From Promethearchaeota archaeon (GTDB taxonomy: Archaea > Asgardarchaeota > Lokiarchaeia > Sigyniarchaeales > SOKP01), in contig JBHLPW010000007.1 in assembly GCA_048939015.1 (NCBI GenBank), positions 1 through 64,000 of the forward strand: 64,000 nucleotides of DNA, given 5' to 3'. Of the stretch, positions 54,476 to 59,158 are shown in pieces; the first letter of the stretch is position 1; each line of letters begins with the position of its first letter. Below the pieces are notes generated by a model. It was not told the DNA's origin. It did no database searches and saw only the letters and a program-made list of their open reading frames with translations. The translations under genes and the position numbers were made by a program.

Positions 54476-56722
54476 CTAGTGGTGATGCCAAAAATGATGC
54501 CAATTTCTAGGATGTGCATTGAAATAATACCAAGCTCCAAATGCATGTTCATATCCCGGTTGGTTAGCAGCCACCATTACAATTGTAGTTTCCCATCGTT
54601 TACCCTTTAAAGTCATAAAGTAATTAGTACCTTCTTGAGTTTCATCACTGAGCCACATAGGAGTTATATAATCCCATGTCCAAAATGGAGTGCCATCCTT
54701 CTTATAATAGGTTGTAGAAGTAATGAATGATACCTTGAAATCATTCCATATGAATCCATCACTCACTTCCCAACCAGCATTTACAACCCAACCATCTGAA
54801 CCGCTCTCAACATCATCAAAGAAACCAATTTCAGTGATTTCAATATCATCAATGTACCAACCTATTTCATTATAGGCTCCATCAGTCCAATATGTAAAGT
54901 ACAACTCGATAGTACGTCCTTCGAATGCTGTTAAATCCATTATCTCTTGATACCAGCCAGGACTAAAACCTGTAAAAGCGTTCCAATTATTTGAAGCATT
55001 GTAGGCATATGGTTCTACATCATCAGGACAATTGATATTATCTTGATCATATAGAAGTATGTCTGTTGTTAATAATCCTGGAAGTGTATACCATGTATCA
55101 GATAAAACATCGTGAATCTCTACATAACCATAGTCCCAATCGGTTTCAATTTCGTAGTAAGTCTGGAACGTTAAAGTAGCTCCCCCTTCAGGAATGGTAA
55201 ATGTCTGACCAAACCTAAACCATGACCATGTTGATCCATCAGAATACCACTCATATGTTCCACTATATGGATATACAGCACCAGCAAAATCATCGCCATC
55301 AAAGCCTATATCAAAGAAGCGTGGTGTATTTGTAAATTCTACATAACTTGCAGTGTAAGGTAATCCACGACCGACTAATATATATTCACCTTCATATGGA
55401 TATTTATCTACAAACCATTCAAAATAACCGGTATCTGGATACCAACTATCCCACAGTTCCATTACATAAGGTATACTTAACCCTTCTGAGTTTTCGGAAG
55501 GAATATCTAATTCAAAATAACCATATCTTCCACAATCTAGTGATGGATCATCAAGATAGTTAGCAATACACCAGTCTTGAAAGATTTGGTCAAATGATCT
55601 TTTGATACCCATGGCATTAAGTGCATTTACCCAACCTTCAATTCCATTCGCCTGATCTTCAACTAGATAAGTTAATAATTCTGCTCCACCATAATGTTCA
55701 TACATATAGAATGTCCATAGGAATGATGCTCCATAATCAGCTAAATAGCCTTCCCAGAGAGTTAATGGAGTATCCCAGAACCATAGTAAATACTCAGAGA
55801 TATGTCCTGGTGAGAATCCATATCCACAAAGCCATTCAGCTAAAGTTGCGCAACCTTCATCAACCCAAGAAAGTTCATCAAAATCTCTGTCATAATGAAT
55901 AAGGTGTTGAAATTCATGGGCAAAAGTTCCTTCATATTCCCAAGCTTTTATACTGAGATAATTGTAATCAAAACCATTATAAGGATCCACCATTGGAGGA
56001 GTTTCACCTTGTCTTCTCCACCACTGGTAAGTATCCATGTGGAAGGCATTCACACCTGCATCAGCAATTCGAGACCAGAAATATCCTTCAATAAATCCGG
56101 TAGGACTGTCACCAAAGTAAAAAAATTCATCTTTAACGTTGAATACCATTATCTGAACTGTACCATCGCCATATGGACCTGGTCGTTCCGCAGGATCATT
56201 ATTATACATACCAAAGTATTCCACATCAGTATCATGAATGTTAGAGTCGAACTCATTTAGGACTTCTAATAGATCCGCTCCAGTAATGTAATCTACATAA
56301 CCTTCTGGTAAATAATAACCACCTGGATAACCTTCATCTGGTAAACCAGTATCAGTCCATGGATAACTAAAAAACCATACATCATCAGGACTATAACCAG
56401 GATCTCCATTATCAACATACCAATCATATAATGGATCTAATGCGACCCATATATTCCCATTGGTACCATTAAAGATATTTTCAAAATAGAGCCATTCTAA
56501 ACCTCCAGTATAATCGTTAATGGTAGGATAATGCCATGGACTATTTGGAGGTTCAATTTCATCTTCTAGTGTTAGAATATTAGTATATTTGCTATCATAG
56601 ATAGGTTCTATATCAAAAGGAGTTGTAGGTTCAACACTTCCAGTCGCAAAATTTATAACTGAAAAAGTGGTAATACTTAAAAAGGCGAAGACTACTAGTA
56701 TGGTGATAAGTTTTTTTCTCAT
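54476..56722 (-). CDS. Secreted zinc metalloprotease (M30 / immune-inhibitor-A-like) with His/Trp-rich C-terminus
   Basis: Signal peptide; AHEFQHLIH...WVDEG; InhA-like C-terminal domain (YEIETDWDYGYVE, FTYWTDG, GWYIDDI); ends NWHHFWHHH. Confidence 0.85.
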   Translation of the reverse strand: MRKKLITILVVFAFLSITTFSVINFATGSVEPTTPFDIEPIYDSKYTNILTLEDEIEPPNSPWHYPTINDYTGGLEWLYFENIFNGTNGNIWVALDPLYDWYVDNGDPGYSPDDVWFFSYPWTDTGLPDEGYPGGYYLPEGYVDYITGADLLEVLNEFDSNIHDTDVEYFGMYNNDPAERPGPYGDGTVQIMVFNVKDEFFYFGDSPTGFIEGYFWSRIADAGVNAFHMDTYQWWRRQGETPPMVDPYNGFDYNYLSIKAWEYEGTFAHEFQHLIHYDRDFDELSWVDEGCATLAEWLCGYGFSPGHISEYLLWFWDTPLTLWEGYLADYGASFLWTFYMYEHYGGAELLTYLVEDQANGIEGWVNALNAMGIKRSFDQIFQDWCIANYLDDPSLDCGRYGYFELDIPSENSEGLSIPYVMELWDSWYPDTGYFEWFVDKYPYEGEYILVGRGLPYTASYVEFTNTPRFFDIGFDGDDFAGAVYPYSGTYEWYSDGSTWSWFRFGQTFTIPEGGATLTFQTYYEIETDWDYGYVEIHDVLSDTWYTLPGLLTTDILLYDQDNINCPDDVEPYAYNASNNWNAFTGFSPGWYQEIMDLTAFEGRTIELYFTYWTDGAYNEIGWYIDDIEITEIGFFDDVESGSDGWVVNAGWEVSDGFIWNDFKVSFITSTTYYKKDGTPFWTWDYITPMWLSDETQEGTNYFMTLKGKRWETTIVMVAANQPGYEHAFGAWYYFNAHPRNWHHFWHHH

Positions 56723-56770
56723 TAATTTATCATCTCATTTTTTTTTTTTATTAAATTTTCAAATCTTTTC

Positions 56771-56897
56771 TTTTCCAATTTTGCTGTTCAAATATCTAAA
56801 ATCTTATAGTTTTGAAGATATTACGAACATCGCCAAAAAGTCATAAAATTTCTGTATATGGTTTACACCCTACAAAATTCTAGACATTTTCAGTGAG
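56771..56897 (-). ncRNA. Candidate structured 5' leader, copy 1 (two hairpins; GUAA tetraloop)
   Basis: Homologous to 58976-59106 with pairing retained despite substitutions; lies downstream of a TATA box at 56916-56924. Confidence 0.55.
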
Positions 56898-56949
56898 ATT
56901 TATTATATCGTGTTCTATATAAAGTTTTTTTTTTCATTTTACAAAATTG
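56771..56949 (-). repeat. Duplicated promoter + leader block, copy 1
   Basis: Shares GAACAT(C/G)GCCAAAAAGTCATAAAATTTCT, TTTACAC, GACATTT, TATATAAA and CAAAATTG with copy 2 at an offset of about 2210 bp. Confidence 0.85.
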
Positions 56950-57444
56950 AAAAGTAGATTCGAGATTTTCTATACTACTTTTTTTACATAAATGTAAAGT
57001 TTCAAAAGATAAAATAGACAAACTTGTCACTTATATTAGACAAGTTGACATTTATGTATTGAAAATTCTTAAATTAGTTTTTGACAAAAATGAAAAATGC
57101 GAATGGGAGCGTATACCCATTTCTTTGAACATATTACTAAATAATTGGTTTCAAAATGATGCAAAAAATTAATGACAAATATGTTCCTATAGATTAAATT
57201 CATTTGATCTTTCTCTCTATTGCCCTTTTTTACTCCTTAAAAATGAGTCCAATTATAAGGGTTATATATGTCTTTTTCAAACACAATACAATAAATCAAG
57301 ATCAAAACTCTTTGTTTTAGTAATTAATAATGTCAAAAATTTAGGACTCTTATCATTATAGAGTAAATAATTTTAAAATACTAACAGTAGTCCTATCTTT
57401 ATTCAAAATAAAAAAAAAAAAGATTAATTAAATTTATACATATT

Positions 57445-58935
57445 TTAACATCTGCAGTGTGGTCCATGGTGATGGTGATGCCAATGCCAATAATGCCAAT
57501 AAAGGTAGGCAAACATCATGGCTCTGTCTGCTCGTAGGAAACCCGCTCCAAAATCATCGTCCTCCCATACAAATTCCCATGGATAATATGAAAATCCCCA
57601 ATAATAACTTGATAAATAGTCATAAATTGGATCATAAACATACGCGAGATTGTAATCTTCTTCACCAGGATAGCTGTCGAAATCCATGGGAAGGGTTGAA
57701 GCAGCAGCTTTCAAGATTGTTTCCATTTGCCATTGATTTAAATATGGAAATCTTTGTAATATTAAGGCAGCTATACCAGATACATGAGGACATGCTTGAC
57801 TTGTACCCCATACATAGTAATATCCAAAATAATCCTCAAAATCGGCAAATTCTGGTTTGTAAGGTCCCACAATACACGCTCCAGGGGTACAGACATCAAG
57901 TTCTTGTTCACCCAATGGATGATCAAAAATTGGTCGGGAACTAAAATCCTCAAGATAAACTTGCCACTCATTACCCCAAACATCAGTATTATGTAAATTT
58001 TCAGGAACATCATTTAACCAAAATTCTCTATTAGACCAACCGATAGCTTCTCCTGTACTACTTGAATAATCGTGATCTACAACAGGAACCCATTGTTCTG
58101 TCCAACCAGCAGCACCTACGGATATTACTTCAGGATATGCTCCTGGCCAACCCATCCCATCTTCACCTGAATTACCTGCTGATGCTATAACAATTACTCC
58201 TTCGCTTATAGCATAATCTATTGCATCTTTTATTATTGGTGCTGGTTCCGGCCCTCCTAAACTCATACTTATAATAACAGGACCATGTAAGTAATGTGCT
58301 ATATCCGCAATATAATTAATACCCGCAGCAACCATTGGATCAGTACCACCTGAAAGAAATTGATAATCTTCAGGAGCATCTGGCACATACCAATTATCAA
58401 GTACCAATACAGGAATTATTTTAACGTTTGGCGCTACTCCTCTAACCCAGAATTTCCCTGCTGAACCATCATAAAGATATCCAGTAATAGTACTTGTTAC
58501 ATGAGTTCCATGACCATCTCCTTTCCAATCATCAACTTCAAAACCTCTTTCTATAAGAGGTCCAAAAGTGTAATCTTCTGCTATTGGATCCCATCCAACT
58601 TCATGTGTAAAACCTTTTCCAAGTTTCCATTTAATATTTCCCTGAGGTAAAATATCTCGCCAATTACTCAATAACCCTGTATCTAATACAGCAATATAAA
58701 CACCAGTTCCTTTTGACCATACTTTATCAGCATCTACCATGTCAACTGAAAAAGGAACCTTCCCTCTACCGCTACCAAAATTTGTTCCAACTCCACAATA
58801 AGGAGATTGCATTTCTGCTTTTAAAAAACCAGTATTATTTCCTATTGATGTCTTTGATGCAAATACAACAGGAATGAAAGCAGGTATCATTGAAAATAGG
58901 AGTATTCCAATGAGGATATAAGTTCTTTTTTTCAC
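57445..58935 (-). CDS. Secreted S8 subtilisin-like serine protease with His/Trp-rich C-terminus
   Basis: Signal peptide; VLDTG, HGTHV, ASAGNSG, GTSQACPHV; ends YWHYWHWHHHHHGPHCRC. Confidence 0.92.
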   Translation of the reverse strand: MKKRTYILIGILLFSMIPAFIPVVFASKTSIGNNTGFLKAEMQSPYCGVGTNFGSGRGKVPFSVDMVDADKVWSKGTGVYIAVLDTGLLSNWRDILPQGNIKWKLGKGFTHEVGWDPIAEDYTFGPLIERGFEVDDWKGDGHGTHVTSTITGYLYDGSAGKFWVRGVAPNVKIIPVLVLDNWYVPDAPEDYQFLSGGTDPMVAAGINYIADIAHYLHGPVIISMSLGGPEPAPIIKDAIDYAISEGVIVIASAGNSGEDGMGWPGAYPEVISVGAAGWTEQWVPVVDHDYSSSTGEAIGWSNREFWLNDVPENLHNTDVWGNEWQVYLEDFSSRPIFDHPLGEQELDVCTPGACIVGPYKPEFADFEDYFGYYYVWGTSQACPHVSGIAALILQRFPYLNQWQMETILKAAASTLPMDFDSYPGEEDYNLAYVYDPIYDYLSSYYWGFSYYPWEFVWEDDDFGAGFLRADRAMMFAYLYWHYWHWHHHHHGPHCRC

Positions 58936-58975
58936 TTTTTATCAACTCTCTTTTTTGTAAATTTTTTACATTTTC

Positions 58976-59106
58976 TTTCCAATAATAGCAGTTCTTTCTA
59001 ATCCCAAAAATCTAATATTTTTTGAAGATTTTAAGAACATGGCCAAAAAGTCATAAAATTTCTTCAAGTGATTTACACACTATGAAATTATTGACATTTC
59101 TGTGAG
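58976..59106 (-). ncRNA. Candidate structured 5' leader, copy 2
   Basis: Same two-hairpin architecture as copy 1; TATA box at 59126-59134. Confidence 0.55.
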
Positions 59107-59158
59107 TACATATTATACCCTTTTGTATATAAATCTTTTTTTCATTTTTACAAAATTG
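58976..59158 (-). repeat. Duplicated promoter + leader block, copy 2
   Basis: See copy 1 at 56771-56949. Confidence 0.85.

Follow-up and report, generated by a model that had tools for sequence, protein, structure and literature searches.

The locus described here raises the question of why two unrelated secreted proteases, encoded by neighbouring genes of an Asgard archaeon, are preceded by nearly the same stretch of DNA, and of what a transcript of that stretch would do. The window that we analysed is the whole 64,000-nucleotide stretch (positions 1 to 64,000 of contig JBHLPW010000007.1, forward strand) of a Promethearchaeota archaeon whose genome is 4.86 Mb in length and 29.8% GC. An earlier note on this DNA had proposed that the two genes share a structured, uncatalogued 5' leader, perhaps a riboswitch, that coordinates extracellular proteolysis. 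The features of the two copies are as follows (type A is defined below).

56931 to 56953, no strand assigned: imperfect DNA palindrome of copy 1, TTTTCA-N-TTT-N3-AAA-N-TGAAAA, read from the sequence, 5' of the BRE and TATA box and untranscribed; kept in most type A copies; probable activator site
56916 to 56923, minus strand: TATA box TTTATATA of copy 1, preceded by an A-rich BRE
56833 to 56893, minus strand: predicted hairpin P1 of copy 1, 1 nt past the start site A56894 predicted from TATA spacing, with a GUC/GAC core and an AAAA/UUUU basal helix
56785 to 56829, minus strand: predicted hairpin P2 of copy 1
56723 to 56784, minus strand: A-rich spacer of copy 1, no conserved fold, Shine-Dalgarno-like GAGAUGA at 56736-56730
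54476 to 56722, minus strand: open reading frame for a secreted M6/immune-inhibitor-A-like (InhA) metalloprotease, 748 aa, PF20773 E 2e-18, signal-peptide-like N-terminus, His/Trp-rich tail
59139 to 59158, no strand assigned: degenerate counterpart of the upstream palindrome, copy 2
59126 to 59133, minus strand: TATA box TTTATATA of copy 2
59044 to 59102, minus strand: predicted hairpin P1 of copy 2, with A59103 as its expected start site
58991 to 59038, minus strand: predicted hairpin P2 of copy 2
58936 to 58990, minus strand: A-rich spacer of copy 2, Shine-Dalgarno-like GAGUUGA at 58948-58942
57445 to 58935, minus strand: secreted S8 subtilase, 496 aa, GTG start, PF00082 E 9e-31, signal-peptide-like N-terminus, His/Trp-rich tail

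BLASTN aligns 56726-56949 with 58938-59158 at 75.9% identity over 232 columns (E 3e-33), a duplicated unit of ~230 bp and ~76% identity that is longer than the ~180 bp first claimed for it. The similarity begins ~25 nt 5' of the TATA box, which both copies possess, and fades past the first 4-5 codons, beyond which the proteins belong to different families (PF20773 vs PF00082); the homology, the TATA boxes and the lack of relationship between the genes had all been read correctly. A third copy was absent from the 4.86 Mb genome by nhmmer and covariance-model search, and no related loci were recovered with the window subtilase as query. Elsewhere in the genome, the remaining M6 paralogue and subtilases are without the leader, so that the proposed coordination of extracellular proteolysis is overstated, although the link to proteases stands.

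Both window proteases carry His/Trp/Cys-rich C-terminal tails (54476-54505; 57445-57500), and such tails, some of them long HHW repeats, close most but not all of the complete leader-bearing M6 proteins. In the stretch separating the subtilase from the M6 promoter is an imperfect 28-nt inverted repeat rich in TGTCA/TGACA words (56985-57058), which may contain further factor-binding sites. A possible terminator, a lone GC-rich hairpin with a T-rich run behind it, is present on the minus strand of the inter-protease gap (57102-57121). A sigma-70 promoter scan is uninformative for an archaeon.

The two window copies belong to a larger family of leaders. Type A, to which they are assigned, was recovered by DNA and covariance-model searches from 18 of 54 genus genomes, with more copies on metagenome contigs; type B, recognised by reading upstream of M6 homologues, occurs in 17 genus genomes, one of which also has type A, and the two types together are found in 34 of the 54. 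P1 is ~18 nt shorter and P2 longer in type B than in type A (P1 measures ~60 nt in A and ~42 nt in B, as against ~38 nt in the sister genus), and intermediates between the types exist (L084, L097, L112). Among the 46 A and B copies examined, the downstream gene is an M6/InhA-like metalloprotease in 42, a subtilase in three (of two kinds) and a gene remnant in one, an association that agrees with the earlier note in tying the leader to secreted proteases. The remnant (L029:6490-6800) consists of a decayed signal-peptide sequence behind an intact promoter and two-hairpin leader, with no protease gene; the IF-2B-family gene comes after it. In the sister genus and two other genera, M6 genes have leaders of little sequence similarity and the same plan, a few of them with a single hairpin. 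Many of these diverged leaders retain an AAGUC/GACUU core with arms 5-6 nt apart, 20 of the 22 that have a detectable TATA box fold at z <= -2, and three are weak model matches positioned exactly 5' of M6 genes.

Outside the family (f1) in which these genera lie, neither model found the element in samples of the order and class, and the M6 homologues of two complete genomes of a second family (f2) and of two Bathyarchaeia have no such two-hairpin leader. Other M6 paralogues, including one in this genome, have a short leader of ~40 nt. A group of these (G000:C102 upstream of 39320; L036, L038, L040-L046) have a GGGGAAA-TTATACC promoter in common, along with a small ACCACAC/GGGTGT hairpin by which the ribosome site may be covered. 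Rfam 15 gave no match for the window copies or for ten diverse homologues (best E 1.9 and 0.92, far below gathering), in keeping with the earlier note, which recognised no known RNA family, and searches of the literature turned up no report, SECIS apart, of a conserved structured leader from Asgard archaea. The structured leader is real, uncatalogued and, among the genomes searched, confined to one Asgard family.

The leader is laid out as follows: the TATA box, then ~30 nt, then the long hairpin P1 at the predicted 5' end, then P2, an A-rich stretch and a Shine-Dalgarno-like (SD-like) site, for a predicted length of ~135-180 nt. The consensus of 24 aligned type A copies is a fold of two hairpins, in which P1 starts at nucleotide 2 of the predicted transcript and closes with UUUUUGG. 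The UUUUUG that had been described as a linker joining P1 and P2 is instead the 3' strand of the P1 basal helix, paired with the 5'-terminal ACUGAAAA, and all 24 sequences retain the basal-helix pairs 7-66 to 10-63. Likewise, the GUAA tetraloop that had been singled out as capping P1 varies across homologues. The helices named in the earlier note can form, but P1 is longer than stated, copy 1 alone has a different minimum-energy fold (-30.1 kcal/mol, against -25.8 kcal/mol for P1+P2), and copy 2 by itself is only weakly above chance in its folding (z -1.4). In 30 leaders that differ greatly in sequence, pairing begins at a median of 30 nt (range 27-38) 3' of the TATA box, a measure whose lower end is bounded by folding windows that began at +27 and in which the start site is the predicted one. 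The SD-like site lies ~35-55 nt past P2 with a pairing probability of 0.06-0.9, and no conserved partner for it was seen in the hairpins. An RNA thermometer was rejected since the SD lies outside the hairpins, as was an upstream open reading frame, the available frames being of 2 and 5 codons and unconserved.

One might suppose that all of this is neutral baggage of duplicated promoters and that AT-rich DNA folds by chance, and the weak formal covariation described below, like the persistence of one copy before a deleted gene, could be read in that way. We nonetheless regard this as quite improbable. The mean folding z of the 24 type A copies is -3.3 on the mRNA strand vs -1.7 on the antisense strand, as compared to a mean of -0.14 (~-0.1) for background upstream windows of this genome, 1.8% of which reach -3.3 or lower; of its other long-leader promoters, 3/151 reach z -3. 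The two-hairpin layout has, moreover, outlasted near-total loss of sequence similarity across genera, and shape is retained while sequence turns over, across types as well as genera. The earlier proposal of a conserved structured 5' leader on the mRNA strand is upheld by these folding scores, by the gene association and by the lack of an Rfam match.

The RNA structure is probably under selection, and formal proof of this is thin. In a home-made, R-scape-like, tree-based test, whose power is low because most core pairs have undergone 0-3 substitutions, 1/40 pairs was significant in type A (a C-G/U-A pair in P2; E 0.002 within the proposed structure but 0.33 when all pairs are counted); type B had none. 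RNAalifold recovered the core of P1 alone on one alignment (A1) and no consensus on another (A3). Other comparisons are more favourable. Among changes in the stems, G-U outnumbers A-C by 124 vs 32 cells, a count biased by the choice of the structure on the mRNA strand; counted as events, G-U vs A-C is 36 vs 22 in stems and 28 vs 45 at unpaired sites (Fisher p 0.009). In P1 of the sister genus, double-sided changes exceed those in all 500 shuffles and in all slid controls, GUC/GAC has become GCC/GGC in two copies, and large length changes preserve the stems.

The same observations bear on whether the inverted repeats act as DNA, in the form of repressor sites 3' of the start or of cruciforms, with the RNA fold as a by-product. 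Archaeal repressors often bind palindromes near the start, the stem positions are mostly invariant, and the antisense strand also folds somewhat. Across variants, however, the GTC and GAC arms lie anywhere from 5 to 41 nt apart, a range that a dimeric protein would not tolerate and that argues against a DNA operator; the stems also contain asymmetric bulges, and the G-U bias belongs to the mRNA strand. An explanation at the DNA level alone is for us decidedly unlikely.

Unrelated genes appear to share the leader because promoter and leader have been duplicated or exchanged together as a cassette. A quickly built M6 protein tree, with no bootstrap, requires at least 7 changes each for types A and B, forced by well-supported branches, while the genomes themselves are nearly all-A or all-B. 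Related subtilases that are 49% identical carry a type A leader here and a type B leader in another genome (G076). The pattern suggests that neighbouring protease genes have exchanged the cassette repeatedly and that subtilases acquired it on two or more occasions. A mobile element was rejected, as copies are always promoter-anchored at protease genes. Just 5' of the BRE, both copies have a palindrome with a TTTTGT(C/A)AAA core (56931-56953; 59139-59158), and a similar core precedes short-leader M6 promoters (e.g., L038, L046, L049), which suggests, from the motifs themselves, that one transcription factor may serve the long- and short-leader promoter classes. A genome-wide regulon was rejected: the palindrome with TATA box occurs essentially at this locus only.

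How, then, might the RNA act? A conserved, structured and uncatalogued leader before one functional class of genes is what one would expect of a new class of ligand-binding riboswitch, and in this it resembles the riboswitches and cis-regulatory leaders in Rfam. It departs from them in having no Rfam match, no conserved unpaired core and no expression platform. The invariant columns sit in stems or at the start site; the loops, ~4 to >20 nt long (stem lengths are equally variable), differ or are deleted between types, and no conserved loop motif was found among the variants. The RNA is built of two simple hairpins and has no multi-way junction, no alternative fold was found to be conserved across variants, the SD-like site shows no conserved pairing with the hairpins, and the element is restricted to one family among the genomes searched. 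The riboswitch suggested in the earlier note must for these reasons be considered very unlikely indeed.

A regulated leader of another kind would be a protein-bound, pausing or attenuation site at which a factor responsive to peptides or amino acids would either let transcription or translation proceed or stop it. With its GUC-loop-GAC stem and the UUUU(U) behind it, the leader looks like an intrinsic terminator; the U-run that adjoins the GAC core does not vary in type A and is found again in most of the diverged leaders. U-tracts are sites of aCPSF1 action (PMC8716108), copy 1 is able to adopt a fold that frees its U-run, and proteases are a natural target of feedback control. Against this, the consensus fold pairs the U-run with the 5' A-run; the P1-less fold that would free it is less stable by a median of 6.5 kcal/mol and is favoured in 1/46 copies, namely window copy 1; some homologues have no U-run (L224); and no conserved loop or bulge sequence was found that a protein might recognise. 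We consider such regulation a tentative possibility. In its most specific form, P1 with its GUC/GAC-UUUU core would be a promoter-proximal attenuation or protein-binding switch that couples protease output to peptide supply via aCPSF1/FttA and has spread between protease families by cassette exchange, a conjecture that we find rather doubtful. If it were true, no cis-regulatory RNA control other than SECIS would have been described from Asgard archaea before it.

The best reading, by analogy with bacterial systems and at about even confidence, is that of an ompA/aprE-like protective 5' leader carried on a promoter cassette. Two back-to-back hairpins that begin at most a few nucleotides from where transcription is predicted to start, with an open A-rich stretch and the ribosome-binding site behind them, would act through shape and not through a ligand. 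If the consensus fold, in which U-tracts are buried in stems, also forms in vivo, the paired 5' end and buried U-runs may shield the protease mRNA from beta-CASP nucleases, averting both 5'-to-3' decay and cleavage of untranslated U-rich RNA by aCPSF1/FttA, with a long-lived mRNA for a secreted enzyme as the outcome. Loops that are not conserved, together with the median loss of stability in the P1-less fold, fit such a leader and not an aptamer. Regulation would probably occur at the DNA level, via the palindrome 5' of the TATA box, and the promoter-leader unit would have been duplicated along with M6 genes, swapped between paralogues and acquired at least twice by subtilase genes.

The E. 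coli ompA leader has two stem-loops and then a single-stranded ribosome-binding segment. This leader and the 5' stem-loop of the B. subtilis aprE subtilisin message are precedents for mRNA stabilisers (original papers cited in PMC7509114 and PMC3997798). As in those messages for exported proteins, the Asgard leader would place a stem-loop at the predicted extreme 5' end, and it leaves the ribosome-binding site outside the hairpins; shape rather than sequence matters in the bacterial cases, and the Asgard leader keeps shape and frees sequence. It differs in that no sequence relationship is expected, the host has no RNase J, the element is longer and moves among paralogues, and its stabilising role is a proposed one. 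Among archaea, long 5' UTRs stabilise the mtaA and mtaC mRNAs of Methanosarcina mazei (PMC5378194), which share with our case a long leader and have raised mRNA stability as a feature; they belong to another phylum and other genes and are cold-linked, and the consulted part of that paper describes no two-hairpin family. The lokiarchaeal, eukaryote-like SECIS is a structured non-coding RNA of the same lineage, and AUGA occurs in copies 1 and 2. In the leader, however, the AU of AUGAC, the two positions before GAC, varies freely; the leader is 5' and promoter-anchored, neither window protease ORF has an in-frame UGA or other in-frame stop, and no Rfam SECIS model matches, so a SECIS identity was rejected.

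The protective reading must find its nuclease elsewhere than in these bacterial precedents. For aRNase J, the nuclease classically blocked by 5' hairpins, this genome gave no match over cut-off. The enzyme is absent from Asgard archaea (PMC10946056), and the model therefore needs another beta-CASP enzyme. One candidate aCPSF2-like 5'-to-3' exonuclease is a 435-aa beta-CASP protein (L125:730-2037; G000:C107) that belongs to the CPSF73/aCPSF group and is KH-less; aCPSF2 has this activity in Sulfolobus (PMC3792030), and the genome's longer beta-CASP protein is probably aCPSF1. Further points count against protection: other M6 paralogues cope with short leaders, the phylogeny-aware covariation is weak, and P2 together with the fairly constant GUC/GAC-UUUU core would exceed the needs of a passive 5' block.

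With more than 60 natural variants, the element is easy to define, and it provides both an example of regulatory cassettes swapped among protease genes and a concrete substrate for studying the protection of mRNA 5' ends in a lineage without RNase J. The genes that it precedes serve extracellular protein degradation, which is likely to be a main food route of these sediment archaea.
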